IMG/VR virus record: IMGVR_UViG_3300021389_000023
Span: 1-60,676 of that record
DNA length: 60,676 bases
Reading direction: 5' to 3' (one strand)
From: a virus
Taxonomy: Duplodnaviria > Caudoviricetes
Positions 1 through 47,400 of the stretch are shown piece by piece. Under the pieces are notes generated by a model. That model saw only the letters and a list, made by a program, of their open reading frames with translations, was not told the DNA's origin and searched no databases. A program made the translations under genes and the position numbers. Every line of letters begins with the position of its first letter. Positions within the stretch are counted from its first letter, which is position 1.

Positions 1-127
1 GTACTTGCCATTGTCTAACCTCCAATGGTCATACAGATTCATATTTATATCTATCTCTACCTCTGCCGTTTTGTAGTACACACTACGTTGTAAAATTTTA
101 ACTTTCATATCTCTTTTCTTTTTAATT
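1..127. repeat. Terminal overlap block 1, identical to 60274-60400
   Basis: Direct comparison: 127 identical nt, diverging at 128 vs 60401. Confidence 0.97.
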
Positions 128-392
128 ATTCGTCTTTTACTTTTATATATGTTTTGTAGTACAAAAAATCTTCATAATCTTTTTCTTCAACCTCGTAGTA
201 AGCATAATCAACGATAGTTAAACCAAACCTAGTCCCCAACCTTTGCCCTTCTAACGGCATGAATGGAATTTCAGCTACGTAGTAAAGGTTTTCAGTTTCG
301 TAGCAATATTTCAGTCCATAAAAATCTGTCCAATTATCCTTGTGTTCTTCATACTTTTTAGGACTACATTCTTTTAAAATGTGAACTCTCAT
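126..392 (-). CDS. Hypothetical early protein (allele A of variable slot)
   Basis: 88-aa ORF; same start context (aattATG) as 60378..60566. Confidence 0.75.
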   Translation of the reverse strand: MRVHILKECSPKKYEEHKDNWTDFYGLKYCYETENLYYVAEIPFMPLEGQRLGTRFGLTIVDYAYYEVEEKDYEDFLYYKTYIKVKDE

Positions 393-502
393 AATTAATA
401 GTTGTTTGTTAGGTATGTATTAAGAGCCAACTGCTGAATAACACTACCCTTGTGTTGTTTTAAAATGTTCTTTACTCCTTCGTCCTCCAAAGCTATTGAA
501 GG
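389..502. repeat. Terminal overlap block 2, identical to 60563-60676
   Basis: Direct comparison: 114 identical nt up to the end of the contig. Confidence 0.97.
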
Positions 503-550
503 GTCTACTGTATGCTCATTGCAGAGCCATATGAAATCTGCTTTTGTCAT
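395..550 (-). CDS. Hypothetical 51-aa early protein (MTKADFIWLC...)
   Basis: Hand-translated; ATGA overlap with 547..828; tiles the operon. Confidence 0.65.
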   Translation of the reverse strand: MTKADFIWLCNEHTVDPSIALEDEGVKNILKQHKGSVIQQLALNTYLTNNY

Positions 551-828
551 GAGTACATCCAATTAAAGTCTTTACTTGATAGTTTTAATAGTTGCTCTCT
601 GTAAGACTTGATGTCGTTAGCTAGGGCTAGTACATCATTAAATTCACTCTCATACCCATCGTCCCAATCATCATCCTCAGCCTCGCACAAGGACTCATAT
701 AGCCCTTGTACTTGCCAATAGATGTCATCATGCAGTGCATCAAACTCATCCAAGTCATCAGCATAGCATAGGTCTCTTAATTCGTTTAGAAGGTTATACG
801 CCTTCATTCCTTTTTCTTTTGTTGTCAT
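547..828 (-). CDS. Highly acidic hypothetical protein
   Basis: 93 aa, D/E-rich; coupled to its neighbours. Confidence 0.75.
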   Translation of the reverse strand: MTTKEKGMKAYNLLNELRDLCYADDLDEFDALHDDIYWQVQGLYESLCEAEDDDWDDGYESEFNDVLALANDIKSYREQLLKLSSKDFNWMYS

Positions 829-989
829 CTTATTAAGTTTCTTAGTTGTGTTAAAAATTGTATAAAAGGTATCTGAGCATACATGAAGGACTCTGCCTCA
901 TCATACGTCTTGAATACCTCTACTCTACTTCCTCTTGGTGTTGGATAGTCTACTACCCAAAGACCACTGTTTAGTTTTTTAGTTGTCAT
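825..989 (-). CDS. Hypothetical 54-aa early protein (MTTKKLNSGLW...)
   Basis: Hand-translated; ATGA overlap with the next gene. Confidence 0.6.
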   Translation of the reverse strand: MTTKKLNSGLWVVDYPTPRGSRVEVFKTYDEAESFMYAQIPFIQFLTQLRNLIR

Positions 990-1285
990 ATCTTATTCTC
1001 TTTTGCATATTCAAAATCAACCCATCTGTCATCTTCAGAGTCGTAAAGAACTCCATCTGAAATTTTTACTCCGACAAACACATCATTCACTTCAGTGCCG
1101 TCCGAGTAAGTTGTATTCCAATTTATAGGTACACCTATAAAGTCTTTTAATTTTTCCATATTCCAATTGTTTTATAACCTCTCTGACTCATAAAGTCTAT
1201 GTAGTTGTTGAGGTGTTTCTCGTTATTAAATTCTTTGTTGACTACACTATACCTATTAGTAAAGTGGTTCTTCATTGAGATCTTT

Positions 1286-1540
1286 CTAGTTATCATAGTA
1301 CTCGTTTTTAAATTCCTCTCTTATTAACCTACCTTGCCTAGTGTTAAAGCCATAGCTATGTGTATGTAGGCTCGGTATAGGTGTCTGCTCCACGATGAAG
1401 TGAAACATATCAATTGCCTTGCATTTATATCTATTGGATATAACCTTGCACGTATCATTCAATCTATCACAGTCATGCTTAACATGACCATAGTTTTCCG
1501 TTAGGTATCTCTCAATACCTCTTGATGTTAATCGTTTCAT
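1286..1540 (-). CDS. Hypothetical early protein
   Basis: 84-aa ORF; TAATG coupling with the upstream gene. Confidence 0.7.
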   Translation of the reverse strand: MKRLTSRGIERYLTENYGHVKHDCDRLNDTCKVISNRYKCKAIDMFHFIVEQTPIPSLHTHSYGFNTRQGRLIREEFKNEYYDN

Positions 1541-1686
1541 TAGTTATCAATTTTATAGTTATAATTTGTTTTTCTTGATAGCATAATTCTGCCTATCGTC
1601 TCTTGGATGTATGGTCTTCCATAGTCATCAAACTCAATTCTGTCTCTGTCTTCATCTAAGAAGATGTAATCGTTTAAGTCTTTCAT
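1540..1686 (-). CDS. 48-aa protein, paralog copy 1 (MKDLNDYIFLDEDRDRIEFDDYGRPYIQE...)
   Basis: Hand-translated; near-identical paralog at 2982..3128 differs mostly by synonymous or conservative changes. Confidence 0.8.
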   Translation of the reverse strand: MKDLNDYIFLDEDRDRIEFDDYGRPYIQETIGRIMLSRKTNYNYKIDN

Positions 1687-1922
1687 AATTCTCTCTGTTT
1701 ATTCCACACATTTAATGTGTTGTTGATTAATGTTTCAATTTCATCAAATTTTTCATTGTAGAAATCGTGTGCTTCTTCTGTAAACATCATTACATTTTCT
1801 TGTCCTACTTCACTTGATTCTGCATAGGTATCTGCACCAATTTTTAACTCTGTAATCTGTGTAGCAATTTCATCTACACATTCTAGAAATCTACTATCGC
1901 TTACTAATATTTTTTCACTCAT
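1683..1922 (-). CDS. Acidic hypothetical early protein
   Basis: 79-aa ORF, tagaaattATG start. Confidence 0.7.
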   Translation of the reverse strand: MSEKILVSDSRFLECVDEIATQITELKIGADTYAESSEVGQENVMMFTEEAHDFYNEKFDEIETLINNTLNVWNKQREL

Positions 1923-1935
1923 AATTTCTAATGGT

Positions 1936-2157
1936 TTAATATTTTGACAGAATCTCTCTGTCCTTTTCTAATTGTTTTTTGCTCAAGACGTTCATAATTG
2001 GAGATGTCTTTTCATCCCAAGAATAAAACTGATTGTCATTTGTCTCGTCAATACATCTTATCGAGGTGACATTGTCTAAAAGAAAGTTATCTCTTTCGAT
2101 TACATCAAGAACTTGTCTGATGTCATCTGTCATGACATCTAATATAAATCTTGCCAT
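1936..2157 (-). CDS. Hypothetical early protein (likely start MARFILD)
   Basis: ORF track 1936..2244; the ATG at 2157 has an A-rich leader. Confidence 0.6.
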   Translation of the reverse strand: MARFILDVMTDDIRQVLDVIERDNFLLDNVTSIRCIDETNDNQFYSWDEKTSPIMNVLSKKQLEKDREILSKY

Positions 2158-2404
2158 TTTTAAATCGCCCATGTTAGTCGGAAGGGACTTTTTCCTAGTT
2201 AGATGTGGGATATGGTTTTGCTCCATACAAGTGCGTCTACGCATCCCACTTTTTTTAGTTAGGTGTAACCCTAATCTTGATTTTCGGTCTCTGTGTAAAA
2301 CTCTGCGTGTTCATGACAGTCACCACACAATGTAGTATATGACCATAATGGTCTTGCTCCACAACAATTGCTATAATTTGACATAATTCTAATAGTTTAA
2401 TTAA

Positions 2405-2650
2405 TTAATATTCGTCCAATGGATACAAATCTTCCCATCCATCTACTGCGTTATTGTTATATGTTCTTGGCTCTTTGTATGGCTGTTGTTCGTAAGGCTC
2501 TACCCAAAAATCTTGACCAAATTGTTCTCCCCATCTTTCGATGCATTCCTTTGCCTCTTGCTGTGCTTCTGCTGATGTTTTAAATCCATCCTCTTGCGTT
2601 ACACATAGACCAAATTCGTCTACTGTTACTACTTTGTACATTGTCTTCAT
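2405..2650 (-). CDS. Hypothetical early protein
   Basis: 81-aa ORF, tagaattATG start. Confidence 0.7.
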   Translation of the reverse strand: MKTMYKVVTVDEFGLCVTQEDGFKTSAEAQQEAKECIERWGEQFGQDFWVEPYEQQPYKEPRTYNNNAVDGWEDLYPLDEY

Positions 2651-2658
2651 AATTCTAT

Positions 2659-2976
2659 TTAATTTCTTTTGTTATACCACTCAATAAAGTCAACTACTGC
2701 TGCATACGTTGAATCAAATCTATTGTCTTTATCTACTACAATTATTTCTTCTGAATTTCTGTTGTCTATTATCTCAACAAAGGATTGAATTACACTTACA
2801 TTGTACTTAGCACATCCATACTCATCTTCAATACTTTCAATCTTATCTACAACTGGCATCAACCAATCCCAAGAGGTGTGATACTTAATACCTTTATTAC
2901 CTAGCATATAGTAATCAAATCCATATTCTTTAGAATACACGCCCATAAATTCTGCTATTAGTTTATTGTCTTCCAT
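2659..2976 (-). CDS. Conserved phage protein (NKLIAEFMG...YHTSWDWLMPVVDKIE; ABA-sandwich-like)
   Basis: Motif pattern recalled from Flavobacteriia phage proteins. Confidence 0.7.
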   Translation of the reverse strand: MEDNKLIAEFMGVYSKEYGFDYYMLGNKGIKYHTSWDWLMPVVDKIESIEDEYGCAKYNVSVIQSFVEIIDNRNSEEIIVVDKDNRFDSTYAAVVDFIEWYNKRN

Positions 2977-2981
2977 AATTT

Positions 2982-3128
2982 CTATTTGTTTATTGTGTAG
3001 TTATACTTGGTTCTTCTAGATAGCATCACTCTGCCTATCTTCTCTTGGATGTATGGTCTACCATAGTCATCGAATTCAATTCTGTCTCTGTCTTCTTCTA
3101 AGAAGATGTAATCGTTTAAGTCTTTCAT
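2982..3128 (-). CDS. 48-aa protein, paralog copy 2 (MKDLNDYIFLEEDRDRIEFDDYGRPYIQE...)
   Basis: Hand-translated; paralog of 1540..1686. Confidence 0.8.
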   Translation of the reverse strand: MKDLNDYIFLEEDRDRIEFDDYGRPYIQEKIGRVMLSRRTKYNYTINK

Positions 3129-3445
3129 AATTCTATTTTTTTATTGTGAGTTCCTAAATAATGGTCATGAATTATCTCATGAGCATATCGCTCAATATAA
3201 GTATCTGAGAAATCAGCATATCCATTTGTCATCTTACTCCAACTCCAATCATCCTTATCGTAATTAATCAGTTTCTGTATCACTTTTGTGTTGTAAATAA
3301 CATATGCTATTTCGGGGATTACATAACTTGCACTTTCTATGTTATCAGATGGCATTTCTTGATGAGGTTGTTCTAACCTTATTCTTTCCCAAGTTCTAGC
3401 AACATGAATCAATATTATGTTGTGTATTTCTCTATCGTTAATCAT
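3125..3445 (-). CDS. Hypothetical early protein
   Basis: 106-aa ORF, tagaattATG start. Confidence 0.7.
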   Translation of the reverse strand: MINDREIHNIILIHVARTWERIRLEQPHQEMPSDNIESASYVIPEIAYVIYNTKVIQKLINYDKDDWSWSKMTNGYADFSDTYIERYAHEIIHDHYLGTHNKKIEL

Positions 3446-3449
3446 AATT

Positions 3450-3758
3450 CTATTTGTTTATAATTGTTATGTCCGTGTACTTTATCTTGGCAGTGGTCTT
3501 GTTTCCTAACATATCAAAGGTGTATAGATACATGTAGTCTCTACCAAACTTTTCTATGTTCATACCTTTACCATAGTAAGTCTCGTTATCATATATAGAC
3601 TCTCCACTATCCGTTACGACTAGGTCTTTAAGGTGATATCCATACTCATTATCATCACCACCTCTTTTGTATGTGGTAACTCCCTTGATATTAATTTCTG
3701 CGTTTCCGTTTTTAATGATTTGCTTAATTGTTTTGTTTGCTTGTCTTTTAGTTTTCAT
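3450..3758 (-). CDS. Hypothetical early protein
   Basis: 102-aa ORF, aacaaacattATG start. Confidence 0.75.
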   Translation of the reverse strand: MKTKRQANKTIKQIIKNGNAEINIKGVTTYKRGGDDNEYGYHLKDLVVTDSGESIYDNETYYGKGMNIEKFGRDYMYLYTFDMLGNKTTAKIKYTDITIINK

Positions 3759-3769
3759 AATGTTTGTTA

Positions 3770-3934
3770 TTAGTCTAGTATACCGTATTCATCTACGATT
3801 ACTATGGTGTTATTAACTTTAGTTATACCTCTATCTAAGATGTTGTTTATCTTACATAGTTTATCAGTGTACTCTAGCTTACTCTTGTTTATGTATTTTA
3901 TTGCATCTAATGTGTTGTTGTATACTTCTACCAT
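3770..3934 (-). CDS. Hypothetical early protein (likely start MVEVYNN)
   Basis: Fills the gap; gaattATG start. Confidence 0.55.
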   Translation of the reverse strand: MVEVYNNTLDAIKYINKSKLEYTDKLCKINNILDRGITKVNNTIVIVDEYGILD

Positions 3935-4158
3935 AATTCTGATTTTTCTATTTGGTTTACCTCTCTTGATGGTAACTCTGACGTGCATTCCTCGTACTTG
4001 TCAAAAGTCTTCTCGCAAAGTCTGTCGTACTTTCTGTACATCTTATCGTCACCATTGTTGTCAGCTAAATCCCTTTGGTCATTAGCTTCATTGTACTTCT
4101 CTAGCCACTTAACTGCTCTGTTGACCATGGCTTGATGTTTCTTGTTAATTGCTTTCAT
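3928..4158 (-). CDS. Hypothetical early protein
   Basis: 76-aa helical ORF; ATGA coupling. Confidence 0.75.
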   Translation of the reverse strand: MKAINKKHQAMVNRAVKWLEKYNEANDQRDLADNNGDDKMYRKYDRLCEKTFDKYEECTSELPSREVNQIEKSELW

Positions 4159-4307
4159 TGTTGTTTTATTGAATAAATTTCTAATACTTCATATCCATTG
4201 TCTTCAAGGATATCTTTAATTTCGGCTTCATCATCTGTTGGTAGGTCATACATATTCATAGAATATGCACCACCTACAGCAGTGAACATGCATTGATAAT
4301 ACTTCAT
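4155..4307 (-). CDS. Hypothetical 50-aa acidic protein (MKYYQCMFTAVGGAYS...), first gene after the hammerhead
   Basis: Hand-translated; 19-nt start context identical to that of 4371..4685. Confidence 0.7.
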   Translation of the reverse strand: MKYYQCMFTAVGGAYSMNMYDLPTDDEAEIKDILEDNGYEVLEIYSIKQQ

Positions 4308-4322
4308 AATGTTTGTTGTTTA

Positions 4323-4372
4323 AGTTAAGACGCCTCTCGGCGTTTCGTCCTATATGGACTCATCAGTTAACT
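4323..4372 (-). ncRNA. Type I hammerhead ribozyme
   Basis: Minus strand reads AGUUAA-CUGAUGA-GUCC(AUAUA)GGAC-GAAA-CGCC(GAGA)GGCG-UC^UUAACU: complete core, three perfect stems, GUC cleavage triplet. Confidence 0.95.
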
Positions 4373-4685
4373 ATGCATCATAAACACAGCCAACCGCTGA
4401 GTTCTGCCATTCAAAGTATAGACCGTTCTTACCAAGAATACTCTGTAGTTTTTCACTACCCCAATAATCAGAGTTATAGTCTAACCAACCCTCTGCATCG
4501 TACTCTTCAGCATCAATCCAAAAGTAACCTCTGTAATCCATATACTTTCGGTCATTTTGCCACCATATCTTCACCGGGCAACCAAGTTTTTTTAATTCGA
4601 TAAACGCCTTGATTGACTCCGGAGTCATGTGGTTGATTTCTTCTTTACTGAATTCGTTGTTGAACATTTCTTTTGTGTAACGCAT
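4371..4685 (-). CDS. Hypothetical protein, first ORF of the early transcript
   Basis: 104-aa W/Y-rich ORF; its TAG overlaps hammerhead stem I. Confidence 0.8.
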   Translation of the reverse strand: MRYTKEMFNNEFSKEEINHMTPESIKAFIELKKLGCPVKIWWQNDRKYMDYRGYFWIDAEEYDAEGWLDYNSDYWGSEKLQSILGKNGLYFEWQNSAVGCVYDA

Positions 4686-4710
4686 AATGTTTGTTGTTTA
4701 AAATTAATAG

Positions 4711-4801
4711 TCATCTGATAGGGATTCGAACCCAATATCTCCACGACAATGGTGTAACATCTAGGTCATGCCTAGCCTCACTCTTTGTGCCGATTCAGAT
4801 G
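4711..4801 (-). ncRNA. tRNA-like cloverleaf with a non-canonical 5-nt anticodon loop and a long variable arm
   Basis: 7-bp acceptor CAUCUGA/UCAGAUG plus discriminator A; 19-nt D region; CUAGG(CAUGA)CCUAG arm; T arm GGG-UUCGAAU-CCC; no encoded CCA. Confidence 0.6.
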
Positions 4802-5160
4802 ATTTTAGTGACAATATCTCTACCATCGCTAACGATTTTGGTTTGGGTAAAATCTCTAACCCCACTAGTGACGGTTAACGCCATATTGCTTCTGTACACA
4901 CATCTTAAGATGTTAACGGTTTTGGTCTGCCGATTGCTCAATATTCTGATATATCCGATTCGCAAAGAATTCCTATCACTAGTCTGTGCCTACTACTTTT
5001 AATCAATCAACTGCATGTTGCAGTGTAGTAAACCATGTCATGAATTTGATACCAATTGTAGAATGAACATTAAGTTGCTGAGAATCAGCTAGTTAGCTTG
5101 TAATGTACTGAGAATCAGTGACATAGCCGAAGGAGTCGGCTGCTATGCTCGGTAATCAAA
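4802..5160 (-). ncRNA. Putative structured non-coding leader of the early transcript
   Basis: No minus-strand ORF in the track; many nested stems (TTTGAT(T)ACC/GGTATCAAA, AGCCGA/TCGGCT, TACTAC/GTAGTA, ACTGCA/TGCAGT, ACTAGTGA/TCACTAGT). Confidence 0.45.
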
Positions 5161-5192
5161 TCAATATTTTAAAGAACGTTTCACCTTTCGGT
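5161..5192 (-). promoter_or_regulatory. boxB-like hairpin plus boxA-like antitermination site
   Basis: ACC-GAAA-GGT then CGTTCTTTAAAATATTG just after the predicted start site; same order as in rrn leaders. Confidence 0.55.
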
Positions 5193-5202
5193 TACTTGAG
5201 GG

Positions 5203-5234
5203 CTAAACTATATATAAGTATTTGTTCTATCAAA
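5203..5234 (-). promoter_or_regulatory. Early promoter, Bacteroidetes type
   Basis: TTTG-N20-TAGTTTAG (one mismatch to TAnnTTTG) at the head of the early arm. Confidence 0.65.
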
Positions 5235-5240
5235 AAAACT

Positions 5241-5347
5241 CGATGAAATGCATATTTATTTGTTTAAGTGTACTCTCAATCGACCAAATGCATAAAACAC
5301 ATGACGAAATGCATCCGACAAAATGCACATAATATCGATGAAATGCA
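5241..5347. repeat. Five copies of YGAY(G/C/A)AAATGCA upstream of the early promoter
   Basis: Copies start at 5241, 5281, 5302, 5316 and 5336. Confidence 0.7.
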
Positions 5348-6025
5348 AAAAGTTACATATTTACATTAAAAATCAAATATTCAATCTATTGATATTCAGT
5401 AAGTTATGAAATGACTTCTCTCTCTGTATTTCGTTTAAATGCATGAAACGTCGGTGAGATGCTATTCCTCAGCTGAGCGTATCTTATGCATATTATATGT
5501 CACCGGTAACAACATATAGTTTTCTTTTATTGAAATTACATTTGCCATAGGCTACATCTATATGTGCTTTCCTAGGTGCAATCTTGCATAATATATATGT
5601 GCATAATATGGATGCTATTACATGTACTATATAGGTATGACAATACACCACAGAAAAATGCCAAAAAAATCAGACAAGCCAACGAAAATAAGACCCCCCA
5701 TAGCGTAAAAAAATCGGTTTTCTGTAGAGGGCAATCGTCGGCATTTATATATATAGCCCTTTTACTACGTGTATCTGAATAATTTTTACCTTTGGGTATG
5801 GAGATACATATAATAAATAGGATACCGACAGGTATTGCATTAGGATGGAGTTACTTCCCTCCAGAGGATAATTTTCCTGTTGAGGAGATAACCTTCCACT
5901 TAATTTTAATAGATATAAAGTTTTTATGGTGACACAAAATGGTGTGTCGATTTTATTTTCGTCATAGAATGAGACCAAAAAGAGAGGAGAGAAATATTTT
6001 TTTATGGCAGAAAATGTGTTTTTAC

Positions 6026-6210
6026 ACTAAAAATCGACACGCTTTCTAAAAATCGACACAGAATCGACACGGGTTAAAAAACTCTATATCAGCTACTTAG
6101 GTAGTGACCGTGTCGGAATGTCGATTTTAATCCTAGTTATAGAAAAAAAATAAAATATAAATACCCTTATATAATATATATATATATATAGGCATTTTTT
6201 AAATTGACAC
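6026..6210 (+). repeat. Origin-like element A: 3x AATCGACAC, IHF-like site, inverted iterons, AT/(TA)n tract
   Basis: Iterons at 6032, 6051, 6062; TATCAGCTACTTA at 6087-6099; GTGTCGGAATGTCGATTTT at 6110-6128; inverted homolog at 59133-59320. Confidence 0.8.
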
Positions 6211-6220
6211 ACATATTTTT

Positions 6221-6251
6221 TTTGTTGGTATAATATATTTTGTTATATTTG
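6221..6251 (+). promoter_or_regulatory. Bacteroidetes promoter for groEL
   Basis: TTTG-N19-TATATTTG, 24 nt upstream of the ATG. Confidence 0.75.
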
Positions 6252-6275
6252 TTATAATAAAAAAAATGTAATAAA

Positions 6276-7820
6276 ATGAATGATTTATTTTTTGACCAAG
6301 AGGGTCGTAAAAAACTTATTAGTGGTATCGAAAAGATATCTAGGGCTGTAAAGAGTACTTTAGGTCCATTAGGTAACACTGTCATACTAGAATCTCAGTT
6401 ACACACTAGGGGTTTGACAGTCACTAAGGATGGTGTAACTGTGGCGAAGGCTATTAACCTACAGGATCCTGTAGAGAACTTAGCAGTACGTATGGTAAAG
6501 GAGGCTGCTGATAGGACAGCCACATCTGCTGGCGATGGGACTACCACTGCGATTGTATTGACCGAGGCTATTGTTGTCGAGGGTATGCGTCTAATTCAGG
6601 AGAACCCTTCTATTAATGTCTCTGAACTTGTACGTGAGATGGTTTCTATATCTGATAGTGTTATAAAGATGCTAACCAAGAGATCGAAGAAGGTAACGGG
6701 TCGTACACTCAGGGATGTTGCCACCATATCTTCAAACAATGACAAGGACTTAGGTAAGCTTGTCAGCGACATCTATAAGGAGGTTGGCAAGGATGGTGTT
6801 GTGACTGTAGAGAACAGTCAGACCAGCGACACGTATTACGAGGTAACTAATGGTATAAAGATAGACAGGGGTCATACGAGTCGTTTATTTATCAATAACC
6901 AGAAGAATGACGAGTGTATACTAGACGATGTTTATATATTAGCTACTGACCTTGAGATAAACAGTATCCTAAACATAGAGAACATACTCAAGCCTATAAT
7001 TCAGGGCAATAAGAAGCTACTGATAATAGGTCAGTGCTCACAGAACGTTATAAACACGCTTGGTATGAACGTTGTAAAGAACGGACTAAAGCTTTGTAAC
7101 ATAATACCACCACAGTTTGGCTACAAGACTAAAGAACTTATGTCTGACATAGCTCTATCTGTAGGTGCGAAGTACTTCTCAGAGGACACAGGAGATGATT
7201 TAAGCTTGATTCAGCTGTCAGACCTAGGTCATGCCCAGAAGGTTGTAGTTAGTTCAACACAGACCGTTATAATACGTGACGACAATCGTTCTAACGATGT
7301 CGATGACCGTATTTCTGAGCTAAAGGAGGCTCGTGATCGTTCTCAGAAGAAGTCAGAGAGGGATTTCATAAATGACAGGATAGCTAGTCTATCTGGTGGT
7401 GTTGGTGTTGTTTATGTTGGCGGAGACTCTGACATAGAGCAGAAGGAGTTGTATGACAGGGTCGAGGACGCTGTCTGTGCTGTAAGGTCTGCGATTGAAC
7501 AGGGTATACTACCTGGTGGTGGTTCGGCACTCCTTCATTTTTCTGAAGACGTCATAAAGATGGATTCGGTAGCATCTCAAATTATTGGTATGGCTATGAA
7601 GGCTCCATTTAAGCAGATAGTTGAGAACGCTGGAAAGATGTATCCATGTGTGGCTAACGAGTTTGGTGAGGGATGGGATGTCAAGAACGATGAGTACGGT
7701 AATATGTACAAGATGGGTGTCATAGACCCAGCAAAGGTAACAAAGAACGCACTAAAGAATGCGGTATCCATTGCGACAACTATATTAACCACTAACGCAA
7801 TTATAACGATAAAAAGATGA
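6276..7820 (+). CDS. groEL: Chaperonin GroEL (Cpn60)
   Basis: TLGP, TKDGVTVAK, GDGTTTA and GVIDP motifs; 514 aa; no GGM tail. Confidence 0.97.
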   Translation: MNDLFFDQEGRKKLISGIEKISRAVKSTLGPLGNTVILESQLHTRGLTVTKDGVTVAKAINLQDPVENLAVRMVKEAADRTATSAGDGTTTAIVLTEAIVVEGMRLIQENPSINVSELVREMVSISDSVIKMLTKRSKKVTGRTLRDVATISSNNDKDLGKLVSDIYKEVGKDGVVTVENSQTSDTYYEVTNGIKIDRGHTSRLFINNQKNDECILDDVYILATDLEINSILNIENILKPIIQGNKKLLIIGQCSQNVINTLGMNVVKNGLKLCNIIPPQFGYKTKELMSDIALSVGAKYFSEDTGDDLSLIQLSDLGHAQKVVVSSTQTVIIRDDNRSNDVDDRISELKEARDRSQKKSERDFINDRIASLSGGVGVVYVGGDSDIEQKELYDRVEDAVCAVRSAIEQGILPGGGSALLHFSEDVIKMDSVASQIIGMAMKAPFKQIVENAGKMYPCVANEFGEGWDVKNDEYGNMYKMGVIDPAKVTKNALKNAVSIATTILTTNAIITIKR

Positions 7821-8790: not shown

Positions 8791-9069
8791 ATGGGTCTAA
8801 GTAGATCGGCAAAATATTATCGGGATAATCCCGAAGCCAGGGCGAAGAAAAACGCTTATCAAAAAACATTTAATAAAAAGAAAAGTCAAAGTAAGAACAG
8901 GGTAAACCTGAATCGTCTGAACAGGCTCTTTGGAACGTACGGTAATGGGGATAATTTAGATGTTTCTCATCGATCTGGCAAGAAACCAAGACTTGAATCC
9001 CAGTCTAAAAACAGGGGAAGTAAGACAAACACACCTGGCGACAAGAGAGCTAGAGGTAGGAAGAAATAA
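8791..9069 (+). CDS. Small basic protein with a degenerate HNH-like motif (DVSH...S.NR)
   Basis: 92 aa, K/R-rich; motif recalled. Confidence 0.6.
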   Translation: MGLSRSAKYYRDNPEARAKKNAYQKTFNKKKSQSKNRVNLNRLNRLFGTYGNGDNLDVSHRSGKKPRLESQSKNRGSKTNTPGDKRARGRKK

Positions 9070-38434: not shown

Positions 38435-41400
38435 ATGGACGATAAATATATAAAAGACATATACGACAATCTTGGAGGAGAATCTGTATTTGGTAATTAC
38501 AATGATTATTATTCATTAATAACATCTGACGACAGTTATATAAAGGATGTTTACGATTCTAAAGGAGAGTCTGTATTTGGGTCATATGATGATTTCGTTT
38601 CTCTTGTAAAAAAAAAAGACGATTCTGTCGTTTCTACTTCTCAAGAGGGCGTTACGGAATCCACTACCAAGGAAGAAGAGCAAACTATCTTATCGGATGC
38701 TTCAGGCGTAACAGTTGATACACCTACTTTAGATTACTATAAACCGAACAAGGTGGATTTACAAGGTGTAAACGAATACCTAGTTAGTATGGGTTTAGAT
38801 GAAGTAATAACCCCAGAAAAAGCAGATACGTCTATAGGTGATAATAATCAATACGAAAATATTAGAAACTATTTTTCAAAAAGAAATGAACCTGTAGATC
38901 TTAATGATAGAGGTGTATTAGAATCTATAAACAAAGGACTTATTTCAGATGAAGATTTAATTTTGGCTGGATACAAAGATCCTGAAGTAATTTCTACAAT
39001 AAAAAGACAGCCTACTCAAGAAGAGATTTTTAACGCCAAACAAAAAATATATTCAAGAAAGACTAAAACTTCAGATGAATTAGATTTCGCCATATCTCAA
39101 TTCAAACTAGACAAGCCTTATATTTATGAAGAAAAGTCAAGTGAAGATCTTAGCTTTATAGAATATAATTATAATTCAGAGGATCTTTCTGAAGCAAATG
39201 TAAATATAAAAGACTTTGACGGATTCTTAAATGAAAAGGGTTTGAAGCAGGATTTTATAAATAAGGCTAAAACTTTTGAGTCTACATACGGGTCTATTTA
39301 TGACCTTGATTTAGCTAAGGAAATGGAATTATCTAGAATGCTAGATCTTTATATTTCTGAGCAATCAAAGAGAGATATTAAGCAACAAAAATTACAGTAC
39401 GAAAAAGAACAAGGTATAGATCCAGATTTAACAGATGACAAATATTCTTTTAAATTGTCAGATAAAAATGTAAGTATACCTAAAATAAATGAGTACTACA
39501 AAAAAAACTATCCTAAGCTAACAGAAAAGCTTTTAGAGACAGATTCAAAAAACAGGGATTTATATAAAAAATATTTAGAAGGTGATTTTGGTAATTTAGA
39601 TTTTTTAAAAGAGTTTGGAGATCAAGGTTACGAAGGTTTTGAAACAAGACTACAAAACTTATCCGCTAGTTTTACTGATTTAATAGGTTTTTCTAACACT
39701 GCTCAGGGTATTAGATTTCAAATTGAGCAAGAAAAACTAGTAGATGGTGACAACTTATCTTACTCTTATGTTGGTGGAAAAAAAGTTAATATTGATGGTA
39801 AGAACTATATCGTAGACAGCAATAATCAGGTTTATGATGCCGACCTAAAGATACGTGTAACAAATTATATTGATGAAGATTTAAGAAATAATATAATAGA
39901 TAAGTCTGTGCAATTCGGCACTGAAGATTTTAGTATTAGCTCTAAAGGTATGGCTTTTGAAACATCAAACATTGTGGGTGATATGGTTGTTCAAATAGGC
40001 TTACAAGGAAGTTTTACAAGCGGTGGTAAAATAGTTTCTGCTATTTCCAATACAGACAAGGTAAGACGTGTATTAGGTTATGTTCCATCAAGTTTTAAAC
40101 AACTAACAAAAGGTTTGACAATAGATAGGGGAATAGCATCATCTATATTAGCTCAATCAACCTTAGGAGCTTCTTCTGGATATGAAGACACATTATTGGC
40201 TGCAAAAGAGGCTGGATTAAGTGATAAGGAATCAGTAGAGTTAGCTAGAGATGCTTCAATTCAAATGGCAAAACTTTATGCTCTTACCGCTCCAATATCA
40301 CCACAAACAAAAGCCACAGAAGCTATATTTGGTAAGATTAAAAATGAAACAATAAAAGACGCTATAAAAGCTTATAAGAATATAGGTAAAGAAGGTTTTA
40401 TCGAGATTTTTGAAAAAGCAGGAAGAAAAGCTACAACTTACTTTGAGGAGGGATTAAAGGAGGCTGGTCAAGAAAATATTCAACAGTCAGGAGAAACTCT
40501 TGTTGTAAATAAAAGAACAAATGAATTAGCTGGTGTAAAGCTAAAGGAAGACGAAGTTACTGTTGACAGCTTTATAAATACATCTCTGTTATCATTAACT
40601 TCTGGTTTTTTAATGCCTTTTGGTGGGGATTTAATAGGTGGTGCTAGAAGTAAATCAAAAAAACTACTAGGTATCGACGGTGTTGATAGAATTAAGGCAT
40701 TGAGATTACTATCTGAAAACCAAGAAAAACTAGAAAAATTATTAAAGGTTCAACAAAATAAAGGTATATACTCTGAATCTCAAGTAGCTGAATTACTTGG
40801 AGATGTTAGAGTTTACAAGGACAACGTGTCTAAGATACCTTCAGATTTGAAATCAGATACAGCTTTAGATGTTATATCTGACTTGGAAAGCATACGAAAA
40901 TTAGAAAATAAGAAAAAAACACTTGACCCTTCTTTTCACGAAGATATAGATAAAGAGATATCGGAGATAAGAGAGTCGATTAAACAAAAAACAAAGGAAG
41001 ATGCCATTCAAGAGCAAGAAACAAGAGATATACCTGATGCTGAACGAGCCGAAGGTGTACAAGAAATGGAAGAAGAAGTACGGGAGCCTGCTGTCGAAGA
41101 AACGGAAGAAGTAACAGAACAGTTATCCCCTGAGGAGAAAGCAGAAACAGTAAGTGAATTAATAAATAGACCAGTTACACTTACAAAACTTGGAGGTTTT
41201 GATTTAGATACCCCACTAGAAGGTGATATGTATGTAGATGGTCAGCGTATCGTTGTTGAAGATGCTAATGGAAATATTACAGATATAGGTAACGTTGACA
41301 AGATATCAGACAAGACATTAGATGAAATGGGTATCGAGCAACAAATGCCTAGTGTCACTACTACAGATGATGGTAATATTGAATTTGAAGGTAAAATATA

Positions 41401-44400
41401 CAACCCAGAAAGTGCACGTATAAGAAGAGACAGTAGAGGTAACATAACTTCAGTCACTCTTGATCAGGTTGGTAAGCCAAGGTCAAAAACATTACGTGGA
41501 AAAAATGCAGAAGATGCTGCATATAATGTGTTATTAAGACAAGCACAACAATCAACAGAAATAGAACAATTACTAGAACAAGATGAAGAATTCCAAAACG
41601 AACTTAGACAAGCTGAAGAAGCTGCCCAAGGCAAAACAGATCAAGATACTGAGCAGGCTACTACAGAAGAAAGCATAGCGAGTCCAGAGGTTACAATAGA
41701 AGATGCTCCAGATGGGACATTCTTAAACATAGAGATGGTTGAAGGCAAGGATGGTCGTGAAATGACTCAGAAAGAGATATTAGACGCACTTCCAGTAGAA
41801 CCTTTAAATGTTGAGGTTAGCGGTAAAACTCTTGTCATACAAGTCCCTAGAAAACTTTCTGGATCGGAGATGATGAAACTTGCTAAGGATACAGAGCAAG
41901 ATGCTATACCTCAGGTGTCAGGTAAGAAGGGTGTGCTACACGCACAATCTAAAGAGAAGATGGACCTGTATGAGGGAAAGTTTATACCTAATTTATTTGT
42001 AAAACCAAAAAAAATAATAAAAGATGAAAAACCTAAAGCAGGAAACAGGCTCTTCAATAAGCCCCTCAAGGCAGTTAAGGCAATTGCGGACAAGTATTAC
42101 AAGAGAATTTTCAAAGGTGAAAGACCAAGGTTTGAAGGTGTCAAAAAGATAGACAAGGAATTCGCCAAAAGAATATCCGACGCATTTGAAGCCATGCAAG
42201 AGAATCCTAACGATCCTGAAGTAAAGGCTGCTTATGAAGCTCTAGCAAAGGAGACTATGGATCAGTATCAGGACTTCAAGGATGCAGGATACACTATAGA
42301 GGTTAATAACTCTGAGCCATACAAAAATGCTCAGGAGATGATTGATGATCTTAGGGATAATAAGAGGATGAAAATCTTCTCCACAGAGTCAGGATTTGGA
42401 GATACTCCTATAACAGAAAAACAAAGGAAAGAGAATCCACTTCTTAGAGACTCTGGTGTCAAGGATGTAAACGGAGAGACTCTTCTCGTTAATGACATAT
42501 TTAGAGCTGTACACGACTTCTACGGACACGCAGAGCTAGGTAATGGATTTGGCCCTGTTGGCGAAGAGAATGCGTGGAACGTTCATGCTAGAATGTTTTC
42601 TCCACTAGCACGTAGAGCTATGACTACTGAGACAAGAGGACAGAACTCTTATGTTAATTTCTCAGGGGTAAATGATGAAGCATTTAAGCTAAGGGATCAG
42701 GCCAGAAAACTAAGAAAGGAAGGAAAGGAGGCAGAGGCAGAGGCTTTAGTGGCTAAGGTCTATGAGATCATGAAGTTTGCCGATCAAAAGATTGGACTGC
42801 TTCCAGAAGAATTTTCATCTTTAGAGCAGGACGGTGTATCTAAACTTAGAGAGATGTTCAAGTCTACTAGCAAAAGGAAGCAGGTCGACAATGCATTGAA
42901 CGCACTGTCTAAGATAGCACCAGATGTTGAGGTGATACTGCATGAGAGTGAACAAGCGTATGCTGAAGCTACAGGAGAGACGGGTCGTAAACAAAAGACG
43001 GCAGGTACATATGATGAGACTATAGTTGACGGAAAGGTTAAGAAGGTTATACACATAAACCCTGACAAGGCTAACGCAAGGACTGTAGCTCACGAGGCAT
43101 TCCACGCTATATTCCTTAACATCGTAAAGAGTGATGCGGAGGCTCAGAGGCTTTCTGCTGCTATGATAAAGGCTGTATATAAGTCTGCACCTGCCGAACT
43201 AAAAAAACTTATAGATAACTTTGCTGAATCAAAGAATGCTGACGGAAGCAATAACTATGACTCAGCTGTACAGAATGAAGAGAAGCTTGCAGAGCTTATA
43301 GGATACCTTGCTACTGAATACGACTCATTACCAAAGCCAACTAAGAATGTTATAAAAAGATTCCTGGATAGACTTGCTAAGATGTTTGGTATGAAGCCAT
43401 TCACAGACAATGAGGTTATAGACGTACTAAACACTATAGCTGGTAAGGTGGCAAGAGGTGAGGCTGTAACACAGGAAGACTTATCTTCTATACAGTCTAA
43501 TGCTAAATATGTTTCTCAAGACGAAGCAAAACTTTGGGGTACAGTACCCGAAAGAAAACAAGTTAGAACAAAACCTGATCCAAAGAAAACCGTAAAGGCA
43601 TATAAAATGTTTAGGGTTAACAAATCTAAACCTGGTAAATTATTTCCATTATTTGTCAATGCAAATGATGAGGTATTAATGAATACTTGGCTTGATGCTG
43701 AAGTTGGAGAACTAACAAAAGATGGTAAAGTTAAATCTAAAATAGGAAATTTAGCTTACAGACCTGGATGGCATATGGGTGATTTACCTATAGCTACACA
43801 TATAGGTGATAAATATAATTTTAAAAAAGGAGAGGTAGATAAAAGTTTAAAAAAACCAACTGCAAGAAGTGCTAATCATGTATGGGCTGAAGTTGAAGTT
43901 GCCGCAGACGTTAATTGGCAAGAGGAAGCTAACAAGAGAGCAAAGAAAACAAAGGCTGGTAAAATAATACCAAGGACAGCACACATAACCGATCGATTAC
44001 CAGAAGACGGTTACTACAGATATAAAACAAATCCTAATATGACTGGCGAGTGGCTTATTGGTGGCTCAATAAAAGTTACTAAATTACTTACTGATGATGA
44101 GGTAAAAGCTATTAATGATGAGGCTGGTGTTGCAGACCTTCCAAGGGTTAAAGAATTAGATTTAAAATCAATAGGATTTGATAGAGATACTGATGTAGAT
44201 CTTAAGGTTACTCCTGCACCAACTGACTCAAAAGGAAATTTAAAAACGCCATCAAAAAAATCACAGAATAATCTTAAGAAGAGAAAACAAAATATAATAG
44301 ATGGAGTTAAGGATCAAGTTGTATCTGGAGAAATTGTTAGCACATCTCTACCAAATAAAGATGATGTTCATTCTAGTAAAGAATATGTAGTAGGTATATC

Positions 44401-47400
44401 TTCACTTGAAGAAATGGCTAGTACAGATAACAGGGCTAAGGATCAGTATATTAAAATTTCTAAAGAAGCAGCTTCATACGGAATATCTAAAACTAAAAAT
44501 GTAAATAATTTTGAAGATGCCAAGCAAGTTATATCTGAGTTTAAAGAAGTTGTAAAATCAAATTTAAAATGGCTTTATGACTCAGTAGATAAAGATGTTA
44601 GAGATATAAGTAAACTATGGTATGACGGAGCTAATAAAATATCTAATGATTTAGCAAATCAATATGGATATACAACAGAACAAGTTGCTGGAGTAATGGC
44701 TGTGCTAAGTCCTCAGATGGATTGGTTTAGAAATTTATCTTTAGGAGAAAGGGTTATTGATATATACAAAAACAATCAGGACTCACTGTTTGATGAGAAG
44801 ATGATAGAATTTGTTAATACAAAAACTACTGGTACTGGTAAAAATAAAAAACCTCTTTTTAAAAATAAAGAAGAAATAATATCAAGAGTAAAAAATAAAA
44901 AATTATCTGAACTAAGTTCTAAAGATCAATCATATTTTATAAGGGTTTATGATGAAGTTTATAATTCTAGAAACTACAACAACATAACTCCTAACGGAGA
45001 AATAAATGGACTTGTTAGAACTAAAAATGGTAACCCTGGTAAGGTTGGTTGGGGTGATTTTTCTACTATTGAGAAAGCTATATCTATACTAAATGATGGA
45101 TCAGTTAAAAATATTTCTACAAATCTAGGTAATCAACATAAGGTAAGAAATTTCTTTAATAACATATCAAATCCTAATGATAAAAATGCAGTTACGATTG
45201 ATACTCATGCTGTTGCAGCTGCATTATTAAAACCTTTATCAGGTAAATCAAAACAGGTTGCTTATAATTTTGGAGGATCATCATCTGTATCTACTGGTAT
45301 GACTGGAACATATCCTGTTTATGCGGATGCTTATAGAGAATTAGCTAATGAGCTGGGTATTCTTCCTAGAGAAGTTCAAAGTATAACATGGGAAGCAGGT
45401 AGAGGTTTATTTAAGGCTGCATTTAAATCTAACAAAAGCAATGAACAAAAAATAGATAATATTTGGAATAAATATAATTCTGGTGATATATCATTAAAAG
45501 AAGCTCAATCGAAAATAGAAAAACTAGCAGGAGGTATAAGTACACCTGTGTGGTATGAATATTTAGCTGATAATAATATTGAATCCTTAGACCAAAACTC
45601 AGCAGCTTTAGATCAATCTAATTTAGATGAAGAACCAATCACTAGATCTCGTAAGCAGGTTAACTTAGCTCCAAATGGAAAGCCTAGTAATCTAAATCAA
45701 GAGCAGTACGATATAGTACGTACACCTAAATTTAAGAATTGGTTTGGTGACTGGGAAAATGACCCTGAAAATTCTAGTAAGGTTGTCGATGAGAACGGTG
45801 AGCCGCTTGTTGTCTATCATGGTGGGCCAATAATAAAAGGCGACTCTTTTAGAAAAGGGTATGCAGACGGTAATTTAAGAGGAGATAAGGGAATATATTT
45901 TACAGAAAATAAAGAATTTGCTAAATACTTTGCTCATCAAAATGAACTTGTCGAAAGAGATAAAAGAAATTTTGAATACGATGATATTCCTGAGAGCGAG
46001 TTAGAGACAGGAGAGCCATTTAATGAAAAGTATTTTAAATATTCTGAAATCTATCCTGTGTTTCTTAACTTAAAGAAACCTACAATATCAGAAACGGGAA
46101 ATGCTAATTTGATACCTCGTCTGTACGAGGAAGGAGCAGATGGGTTTATAACAAAATCAACATCAGATTTTGGTTATGACGCAGGACAATACATAGCCTT
46201 CGAGCCTAACCAAATCAAACTCGCAGACGGAAGCAACAAGACCTTCGACCCAGACGCACCTTCTATTCGTAAGCAAGCACCAGGGAGACCAAGTATCGGA
46301 GAGATAGTTAGAAAGGGTAAACAGAACAATATTTCTGACGCTGATATAAGACAGTTCGCAAAGGAAGAAGGTTATACAGATGCAGAGATAACTGCCGCTA
46401 TGAATATTCCTTCTTCGGAAGAAATAGTTGAACGATCTGAGAAGGCTATAAAAGATAAGTTGAAGAAAAGAGATTTTAAAGGTACTATGAGGTATCTTAG
46501 AAAGAAAATTTTTGACAGACAGACATATATAAAAGACGTTCTTAAGGGTGTTGGAAATAAAAAATCAGTAAGAGCTCATAATAGGTTAGTAACAAAGGCT
46601 GGAGCTAAAGGTTTCGCTAACTATAGATTTAAGAAGGCAGAAAAAGAAATATTTAGCAATCTATCTGAAAAAGAAAAAAAACAGCTTGACGCTCTTATAT
46701 ATGCAAGAAGAATAGTCGCTATAAATGAAAATAGAAAGAAAAGAGGTGAGGATGAATATGTAGGAGCAGGTGGATATAATTATGATAAAGCTAAGTCAGA
46801 GGTTGAGGCATTTTCTAATGACAAGCTATCCAAAAGAGCTGATAAGTATTTTGAAGTATTTAATCAAAACCTAAAGAGGTTACGTGACTCAGGTAGAATA
46901 TCAGAAGATGTATATATAAGCCTAAGGGACATAGAATATTCACCTATAAAAACTATTAAGTATATTATAGGAGACAATCACAGCACTTCAGAAATGAATA
47001 ATCTAGCTAACTCAATTGGTGTCAGTCAAAAAGATATAATGGCACTTAGTGACGAGAATATTAATGATTTAATTACTGACTCACGTTGGCTTCTTATGAT
47101 GAATATAAGTGCTGTTGAAAATAGAGCTGCCACAAATGAAGTATTAAATTTGTTTTATGATGCAATAGAATCAGCAGATGCAGATGGTTTAGCAGCTATA
47201 AGTGACAACATTCTTGACAACCCAATTATTGGAAATAAAGAATCAGGAGCACCTAAATTTAAGTATGATGACGTTAAAGTTCCTGTAGGATATAGAACAG
47301 TATCATTCTTTAAGGATGGTGTTGAACACAAGATGGTGATGAGGGAAGAGTATGCTAGACAGTTGTTGGATATCAAAGTTGACGATAAGACATTGAAGGC

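Follow-up and report, generated by a model that had tools for sequence, protein, structure and literature searches.

A tRNA-like element heading a phage operon as a candidate mRNA cleavage signal exchanged with hammerhead ribozymes

The viral DNA analysed here (60,676 nucleotides, hereafter the window) is the whole of a complete 60.7-kb IMG/VR virus record, and its left end (bases 1-4685) carries a leftward operon of small open reading frames (ORFs). Immediately upstream of the first of these, a 91-nt element resembles a transfer RNA; we call it TLS1. We propose, with moderate confidence, that TLS1 is a cleavage signal for host RNase P and RNase Z, which would trim the leader of the transcript to a short AU-rich 5' untranslated region (5' UTR), and that it is interchangeable with hammerhead ribozymes. 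The proposal draws on the anatomy of the element, its likeness to a tRNA-Met gene, a hammerhead at the next junction of the operon, the exchange of both kinds of device at orthologous junctions of related phages, their fixed distance to the following ATG, and the covariation displayed by a family of smaller elements.

TLS1 lies on the minus strand and displays all of the tRNA-like features that a first-pass annotation had read from the sequence. Its acceptor stem pairs CAUCUGA (4801-4795) with UCAGAUG (4718-4712), with seven out of seven Watson-Crick pairs. The 19 nt that follow (4794-4776) have an A instead of a U at position 8, and only one of the four pairs of a D stem forms in the canonical register (CGGC/UGAG). 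Next comes an anticodon-like hairpin (4775-4761), in which the stem CUAGG/CCUAG (4775-4771/4765-4761) closes a loop of five nucleotides, CAUGA (4770-4766), followed by a variable region of 25 nt (4760-4736). The T stem UUGGG/CCCUA (4735-4731/4723-4719) has four out of five pairs, with one U.U mismatch, carries the loop UUCGAAU (4730-4724) and abuts the 3' strand of the acceptor. The resulting stack measures 7+5 bp, as compared to 11-13 bp in the counterparts described below. The discriminator is an A (4711), CUA takes the place of CCA, and the ATG of ORF 1 (4685) is found 25 nt downstream on the same strand.

These features do not describe a tRNA in service. ARAGORN with default settings detected no tRNA or tmRNA gene in the whole window, and the Rfam tRNA model (RF00005) gave no match to positions 4000-5400 even at E<=10. 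When the threshold of ARAGORN was lowered to 80%, TLS1 was reported as a 92-nt tRNA-Arg(CCU) built on another, weak anticodon stem, a sub-threshold call of the kind that the annotation had expected. The 7-nt loop of this alternative, GACCUAG, has an A at position 33, so it lacks U33. Since there is no default tRNA call, the loop has five nucleotides and both the D stem and U8 are missing, the evidence supports the annotation in that TLS1 is not a decoding tRNA. Membership among tmRNAs is not indicated either: pair 3 is U-A, with no G3.U70, and neither ARAGORN (even at the lowered threshold) nor Rfam returned a tmRNA match.

A likely origin was suggested by comparison with four phage tRNAs, among them a tRNA-Met(CAU) of the related locus L061 (64.5 bits in Rfam). 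The anticodon arm of this tRNA, GCUAGG-CUCAUAA-CCUAGA (position 27), differs from the corresponding arm of TLS1, GCUAGG-CAUGA-CCUAGA (position 26), by the deletion of two loop bases and one change, and the T loops are identical. Because of this match, TLS1 is best read as the relic of a gene of the tRNA-Met(CAU) type. On the same reading, it would have lost two bases of the anticodon loop, seen its D arm dissolve and gained about 20 bases in the variable region. The best explanation of what was left is that the top half of the tRNA was kept: an acceptor stacked on the T arm, a discriminator, and no CCA.

The junction between ORF 1 and ORF 2 holds a different device, a type I hammerhead. It scored 35.9 bits (gathering score 34; E 2.5e-5), and is the only Rfam family that reaches its gathering score in the window. 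All core positions were present in the alignment (CUGANGA...GAAA...UH and three stems). The predicted cleavage site, between 4329 and 4328, precedes the ATG at 4307 by 21 nt. The sequences following the hammerhead and TLS1 both continue as ...UUAAACAACAAACAUUAUG and have a leader word in common, AACAACAAACAUUAUG. In the form found in the TLS1 trailer, AACAACAAACATTATG, this word recurs after the hammerhead (4320-4305) and, with one mismatch, at 3771-3756; four matches at no more than two mismatches were found against 0.15 expected.

Hammerheads also occur among the relatives of this phage. Comparison loci (designated by L numbers) were fetched via the chaperonin (60 loci) and via ORF 1 (16 loci). 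Our hammerhead descriptor gave 39 matches in 16 of 78 sources, some of which are near-identical contigs (L026/L027; L005/L080/L081), and all 39 lie on the operon strand. An ORF starts with ATG 12-32 nt past the cleavage site in 37 of the 39, as opposed to 447 of 2000 random positions. In L066, L067, and L068, the genes after the ORF 1 ortholog are separated by hammerheads at nearly every junction, five to six in about 2.8 kb.

Two other observations concern these ribozymes. Many of the predicted new 5' ends begin with UUAACC and a small GNRA hairpin (GUC-GAAA-GAC or GGC-GAAA-GCC), as in L003 (2969-3000 and 3364-3395), and the same module also follows the small junction element of L067 (2461-2500). 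The synthetic RiboJ insulator has an extra hairpin that this module resembles. In the cultured Cellulophaga phage phi19:3 (KC821608.1, L178), gp051 and gp050 are separated by a type I hammerhead (9003-9057, plus strand in the locus) that is unannotated in the record. It overlaps the stop of gp051, and its cleavage site is 34 nt before the next ATG. It scored 22.1 bits with RF00163, below the gathering score, and phi19:3 gave no match to R2, one of our models of the small junction elements.

Exchange was seen at orthologous junctions. The product of ORF 1, P0001, has orthologs with 77-82% identity in L003 (78%), L066, L067, and L068. What precedes them is TLS1 in the window, junctions of about 50 nt in L066, L067, and L068, and a hammerhead in L003. 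The small elements have an outer stem of 7 bp that encloses two hairpins: a small, D-like one, and one of 5 bp whose 7-nt loop is AGCGAWA and which abuts the 3' strand. A-CUAA follows. The outer stem and trailer of the L066 element, CAUCGGA...UCCGAUG-A-CUAAUUUUAAAA, resemble those of the window, CAUCUGA...UCAGAUG-A-CUAUUAAUUUUAAAC; between the two, one pair has undergone a compensatory change. Another exchange was found after a 37-aa ORF with a CxxC motif, which is followed in the window by a small junction element that we call TLS2, and in L003 by a hammerhead after the ortholog (59% identity). At orthologous junctions of relatives, the devices (hammerheads, 45-50-nt junctions, and tRNA-Met genes without CCA) are placed 12-35 nt before the next ATG.

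The tRNA-Met genes are the third kind of device. Those of L061 and L047 are real tRNA genes, encode no CCA, and are found 14 and 17 nt, respectively, before the ATG of an ORF; therefore, their maturation must cut the mRNA at that place. Their trailers, CUAAAAUU and CUAUUAAAUU, are like that of the window, CUAUUAAUUUU. Elements with UUCGAxU loops were detected on the operon strand of L006/L007, L020, L024/L048, L026/L027, L035 (three copies), L038, and L061. Common to the real tRNA, the relic, and the small elements with either UUCGAxU or AGCGAWA loops are a stack of 11-13 bp, a 7-nt loop, one unpaired base, and CUA(A/U). The first-pass annotation had suggested that TLS1 could be a processing signal of RNase P and RNase Z; the presence of hammerheads, small elements, and CCA-less tRNA-Met genes at the same junctions favours this suggestion, through support that is comparative in nature.

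Some of the tRNA-like elements are worth describing in their own right. Degenerate tRNA-like elements of 85-112 nt occupy the minus strands of L035 (2629-2545, 2221-2111, and 636-552) and L026/L027 (2832-2723), each ending on its 3' side no more than about 25 nt from an ATG, and in one of them the anticodon arm is replaced by a hairpin of about 14 bp with a tetraloop. In L061, a 121-nt element (1859-1739, minus strand) matches both ends of the tmRNA model, which make up its tRNA-like domain, including the G3.U70 pair. It scored 37.9 bits against a gathering score of 47 and is located about 150 nt upstream of the real tRNA-Met in the same operon. It is possibly a mini tmRNA mimic.

Pairing is conserved across these positions. 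In a table of six positional counterparts that includes TLS1, which follows our own registration anchored on the T loop, discriminator, and trailer, pairing holds in 70 of the 72 cells of the acceptor and T stems, and both sides changed in 10 of the 12 pairs. MAFFT alignments that contained TLS1 or distant small elements were out of register, and a cmsearch alignment mis-registered L010 and TLS2. The annotation had looked to compensatory changes in the acceptor and T stems of homologs as a test of its reading; such changes do occur among the positional counterparts, and no sequence homolog of the 91-nt element itself was found in the collections searched.

We also asked how often this architecture arises by chance. 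The T-arm word GGTTCGAATCC alone is not informative (one match against 0.42 expected, not significant), and a loose descriptor of acceptor and T arm was dropped after it gave 102 matches as compared to 86-121 in shuffles. A strict descriptor specified a 7-bp acceptor with at most one G.U pair, an abutting hairpin of 5 bp with a 7-nt loop NNCRANN, and a G-C-rich inner stem. Related loci totalling 810 kb contained 16 matches, whereas 30 shuffles averaged 2.73 (maximum 8). With the trailer N-CTAW added, there were six matches against 0.03; TLS1 is among the six, and all six are on the operon strand.

Could TLS1 instead be a functionless pseudogene, a decaying phage tRNA-Met gene that lies before ORF 1 by accident? 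We consider this unlikely, and it is one of the two alternatives to which we give the most weight. Damage is plain in the anticodon loop, the D arm, and the variable region, no tRNA is called, there is no homolog in which conservation could be seen, and the fold of TLS1 is not better than those of shuffled sequences. However, decay would have had to spare all seven acceptor pairs and the T loop while the element gained some 20 nt and lost its D stem. Likewise, accident would not readily account for an acceptor and trailer like those of the L066 element at the orthologous site, with a compensatory pair, nor for relatives that hold hammerheads or small elements at the same class of junction.

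A role in trans is the other alternative that we rate as improbable to the same degree. The released 91-nt RNA, perhaps with CCA added, would act as a sponge or decoy for proteins that bind the acceptor/T half of tRNAs. Candidate targets are toxins of defence systems that attack the 3' end or the acceptor stem, as well as modification enzymes, EF-Tu, and SmpB. As the first element of the operon TLS1 would be made first, and the tmRNA-like element of L061 suggests that some of these elements mimic specific ligands. Nevertheless, hammerheads release no tRNA-like RNA and yet replace the elements at orthologous junctions, and no defence or counter-defence gene was linked in scans of 18 window ORFs with Pfam and 10 with PHROGs. 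The more specific idea of the first-pass annotation, a decoy for host nucleases that attack tRNAs, gained no support. Small elements without an anticodon arm cannot bait anticodon nucleases and so argue against that version, and a bait for enzymes of the acceptor end is still conceivable.

Based on these findings, we postulate the following course of events for TLS1 as a cleavage signal. The element would be transcribed together with the leftward operon, probably an early one, as part of its long leader; we infer this co-transcription, as we do the cutting, the enzymes responsible, and the benefit to the phage. Host RNase P would cut on the 5' side, between 4802 and 4801, and a host tRNA 3' endonuclease of the RNase Z type would cut past the discriminator, between 4711 and 4710. 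The leader would be removed and the first mRNA would begin with an unstructured, AU-rich 5' UTR of 25 nt, for which positions 4686 to 4710 are the predicted sequence. Such a short AU-rich 5' UTR may suit the translation without Shine-Dalgarno sequences of Flavobacteriia. The hammerhead at the next junction would do the same job in cis. The minihelix of acceptor and T arm is a sufficient, minimal substrate for RNase P, RNase Z, and the CCA-adding enzyme. RNase Z is inhibited by CCA at positions 74-76 and can cut where CCA is absent, while the CCA-less tRNA precursors of T4 require host RNase BN/Z. One may speculate that a G.U wobble would still allow CUA to pair with GGU in RNase P RNA, while CUA escapes the CCA block of RNase Z.

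A further alternative turns on which side of the element is cut. A fold that is cut by RNase P only, or not at all, would stay at the 5' end of the mRNA as a cap-like structure in cis, protecting it from decay that depends on the 5' end or aiding the loading of ribosomes. The position of TLS1 25 nt before the ATG and an RNA-library contig that runs through its 3' border would fit, and we still regard this alternative as very unlikely. The body of a type I hammerhead would stay upstream, leaving an mRNA that starts 12-32 nt before the ATG, and the equivalent cut in a tRNA-like element is the one on the 3' side, after the discriminator. In addition, a real tRNA-Met in the same position must be released at both ends.

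The small three-way junctions form a widespread family. In the window, TLS2 has an acceptor-like stem of 6-7 bp, a small hairpin, and a 5-bp hairpin with the loop AGCAAAA that abuts the 3' strand, followed by A-UCUAAC. It lies 31 nt before the likely ATG of the next ORF (2172) and folds alone into a three-way junction (z = -2.26). A small hairpin with the conserved loop AAAGUCC follows TLS2, and was also seen in L003 (4074-4100). The family as a whole has no anticodon arm, about 15 conserved bases (loop AGCGAWA, NGAC, and N-CUAA), and no Rfam family. Four members that were aligned with MAFFT each fold alone into the three-way junction, with z from -2 to -4.9.

Covariation in this family was strong. 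In four elements aligned with MAFFT, 98.4% of cells were paired and 8 of 16 pairs changed on both sides; none of 500 shuffles reached this level, and slid controls gave 0-2. Model R1 recovered 29 copies; they are spread over 26 loci, some of which have more than one on the same strand. In the alignment of these 29 elements, which was fitted to R1 itself, 96.4% of cells were paired as compared to 53.3% in shuffles, and the covariation score was 0.881 versus 0.174 (0 of 500 shuffles; slid controls 0.08-0.19). A degenerate pattern of the family retrieved 88 stretches from IMG/VR, and among the 80 of them that were listed, 22 displayed a T-like stem with at least four of five pairs and an enclosing stem with seven of seven. 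Between the end of one ORF, usually 5-12 nt upstream, and the start of another at most 45 nt downstream were located 18 of 23 IMG/VR elements. Clear hammerheads on the same strand were present in L134 (three copies), L148, and L165, out of 21 IMG/VR loci fetched by pattern and filtered by stem; the descriptor match in L091 is doubtful. The G.U pairs and strand bias of the elements point to an RNA rather than a DNA structure.

This family also invites a bolder reading, on which phages of marine Flavobacteriia freely swap three unrelated punctuation devices (hammerheads, relics of tRNA genes, and the AGCGAWA junction) and the AGCGAWA junction is a new module, self-cleaving or dependent on a phage factor, and not a substrate of RNase P or RNase Z; we rate this as a long shot. 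To extend it to the whole class, with TLS1 as a convergent look-alike that no host enzyme cuts, is the least probable of the explanations considered: the small elements do swap with hammerheads, have some 15 conserved bases, and lack an Rfam family, but TLS1, the small UUCGAxU elements (L006, L020, L024, and L038), and real tRNAs share positions and trailers, which points to tRNA enzymes, and no RNA-processing protein was found with Pfam among the 18 larger window ORFs.

Several observations weigh against TLS1 as a cleavage signal. It has no sequence homolog in the collections searched: blastn of positions 3800-6300 against phages gave no match, blastn of TLS1 against 65 loci found no homolog, and an exact 25-mer of TLS1 was not present in IMG/VR. 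A 17-mer of its anticodon-like hairpin had five matches, all unrelated by inspection. Because there is no such homolog, the covariation of TLS1 itself is limited to the one compensatory pair with L066 (pair 5, U-A to G-C). Neither R1 (filters off, positions 4690-4830) nor R2 recognises TLS1, and the fold of TLS1 alone is not better than shuffles (z = -1.0). The L-shaped elbow is not assured, because the T stem has its U.U mismatch and the T loop lacks an obvious G18G19 partner. The curated list of 19 tRNA-like elements, 14 of which have an ORF start at most 40 nt from the discriminator, was partly picked by eye. Most junctions of the window operon carry no element; therefore, cutting is not needed for every gene. 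Neither hammerheads nor small elements were detected by model or descriptor in three complete relatives, Cellulophaga phage phi38:1, Flavobacterium phage elemoE, and MW202828.1. Finally, expression data consisted of contigs, with a depth of about 2, from four RNA or possible-RNA runs in which DNA may be present. These contigs cover 4544-4718 (X17), 4668-4843 (X19), and 4320-4491 and 4480-4680 (X18). The sole one over TLS1, from X19, bridges both predicted cleavage sites, and represents RNA that had not been processed or else carried-over DNA. Contigs this sparse reveal neither ends nor strand nor level, and the parts left uncovered carry no meaning.

Table 1 Features of the leftward operon and its leader in the window
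Feature	Positions	Strand	Description	Basis
Leader upstream of TLS1	4802..5200	-	No convincing ORF	
TLS1	4711..4801	-	91-nt tRNA-like element; RNA 5' end 4801, 3' end 4711	Sequence reading
Trailer/leader	4686..4710	-	CUAUUAAUUUUAAACAACAAACAUU; 25 nt, AU-rich, from discriminator to ATG	
ORF 1 (P0001)	4371..4685	-	104 aa; first ORF of leftward operon	
Hammerhead	4323..4372	-	Type I; between ORF 1 and ORF 2, overlaps ORF 1 stop	Rfam RF00163 and own descriptor
ORF 2 (P0002)	4155..4307	-	50 aa; preceded by hammerhead and shared leader word	
CxxC ORF	2384-2271	-	37 aa	
TLS2	2199..2251	-	Three-way junction of about 46 nt	Model R1, 24.2 bits; model R2, 37.2 bits (E 1.5e-6)

The gene content of the window provided insights into the identity of the phage. 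In Pfam searches of the 18 larger ORFs, the portal proved to be P22-like and the primase BT4734-like; a GroEL-like chaperonin and a polyvalent protein of 3588 aa were also identified. By portal and chaperonin, the relatives are podophages of Flavobacterium, Cellulophaga, Maribacter, and Tenacibaculum, which makes a host within the Flavobacteriaceae probable. The large ORF had raised the guess of an N4-like phage with hairpin promoters, which was ruled out by the polyvalent protein, the P22-like portal, and the BT4734-like primase. The polyvalent protein (38435-49201, plus strand) is encoded after the structural genes, combines ART-PolyVal (ADP-ribosyltransferase), DUF7178, and LPD38 domains, and is probably an injected or virion-borne multi-domain protein. 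Meanwhile, the small ORFs of the leftward operon had no recognisable function in Pfam and PHROG scans, P0001 belongs to no Pfam or PHROG family, and scans of 18 ORFs with Pfam and 10 with PHROGs revealed no RNA-processing enzyme.

About 1.6 kb without a convincing ORF separates the leftward operon from the divergent chaperonin gene. The first-pass annotation had described TLS1 as standing upstream of the first early gene; ORF 1 is indeed the first ORF of its operon, and the designation as early follows from layout. The leader (4686-5640) is not conserved with relatives, and a scan for sigma-70 promoters gave matches at the level of shuffles. The exact Bacteroidota consensus TTTG-N17-23-TANNTTTG was not found on the minus strand of the leader, and its sole site precedes the chaperonin gene. 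By our own reading, a possible promoter of the Bacteroidota type lies near 5240-5205. A box like TATATTTG, about 300 nt upstream of the elements, is common to L003 and L066-L068.

The same region contains repeated sequences. In the leader (about 5112-5060, minus strand), CUGAUUCUCAG occurs twice, 31 nt apart, with a 4-bp stem and a 3-nt loop, and in L003, L066, and L068 the corresponding position, downstream of the TATATTTG-like box, is occupied by CUGAUAAUCA / CUGAGAAUCA. The divergent control region (6020-6130 and 5944-5955) displays four to five direct copies of GTGTCGATT plus inverted copies (AAATCGACAC), and similar repeats were found in L006. MW202828.1 (L088) has a different repeat, the palindrome GTGTCGTTAACGACAC, which is found about 20 nt ahead of most genes in the corresponding operon; two junctions of this relative look tRNA-like by eye. 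The GTGTCGATT and GTGTCGTTAACGACAC repeats could be operators, promoter elements, or RNA hairpins.

The proposed system is reminiscent of several known ones. In tRNA punctuation, known from the polycistronic transcripts of mitochondria and from bacterial tRNA-mRNA co-transcripts such as the tufB operon of E. coli, tRNAs or tRNA-like folds likewise stand between cistrons, and their excision by RNase P and RNase Z sets the ends of mRNAs. The setting here differs in being the operon of a double-stranded DNA phage, with a non-decoding element that alternates with self-cleaving ribozymes. When literature joining the terms tRNA punctuation and bacteriophage was searched, the matches listed were all mitochondrial. 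The tRNA-like elements of MALAT1 and NEAT1, mascRNA and menRNA, do not decode either: their tRNA-like folds have a reduced anticodon region, CCA is not encoded, and they act as an RNase P/Z signal in a long transcript. Those, however, are eukaryotic and nuclear and form the 3' ends of long non-coding RNAs. They have no relation in sequence to TLS1, and Rfam finds no such family in the window.

The tRNA-like domain of tmRNA, and the tRNA-like module of bacterial Y RNAs reportedly described by Chen and colleagues in 2014, also keep acceptor and T arm with no D stem and no anticodon. TLS1 has neither the G3.U70 pair nor the body of a tmRNA, and only the L061 element resembles the tmRNA domain. 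Among synthetic cassettes (RiboJ, ribozyme-flanked guide RNAs, and tRNA-gRNA arrays), hammerheads and tRNAs are interchangeable for cutting transcripts and for providing a standard 5' UTR; those are engineered, whereas the TLS1 system would be a natural version.

Phage precedents exist for parts of the arrangement. The sections of Perreault et al. 2011 (PMC3088659) drawn on here describe tandem type I hammerheads in a polycistronic RNA of phage origin that cleave in vitro and in E. coli, as well as an early transcript of a halovirus whose 5' end is within 3 nt of a cleavage site, and leave open the purpose of the tandem arrangement. The likeness lies in several type I hammerheads within one phage-origin polycistronic RNA; tRNA-like counterparts do not appear in those sections. 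Similarly, the portions of Kienbeck et al. 2024 (PMC10879173) used here report that theta (HDV-like) ribozymes adjoin functional phage suppressor tRNAs. Phage ribozymes and tRNA processing are thus linked at shared loci there as well, whereas here the ribozyme and the tRNA-like element would be alternatives for cutting mRNA. In the openly accessible main texts that our search covered, neither the AGCGAWA junction nor a mutual replacement of hammerheads and tRNA-like elements within phage operons was found to be described. Hence, tandem hammerheads flanking phage genes are known, while their exchange with tRNA-like elements and the AGCGAWA junction appear to be new.

These findings have implications for the understanding of phage ribozymes, since the role of many phage and bacterial hammerheads has been open since they were catalogued. 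If the top half of a tRNA and a ribozyme do replace each other at orthologous junctions, what is selected would be the cut itself and the short leader it leaves, a directly testable answer to the question of what phage hammerheads do. Were the AGCGAWA junction a new cleavage module, the swaps would likewise reveal the purpose of phage hammerheads, namely monocistronic mRNAs with short standard leaders. The proposal would also bring to light a small RNA motif that covaries, is widespread, and has no entry in Rfam, and provide a natural counterpart to the ribozyme and tRNA insulators of synthetic biology. Furthermore, it would reveal a route for the exaptation of phage tRNA genes once decoding is lost, and phages regarded as tRNA-less may still rely on the tRNA-processing enzymes of their hosts.

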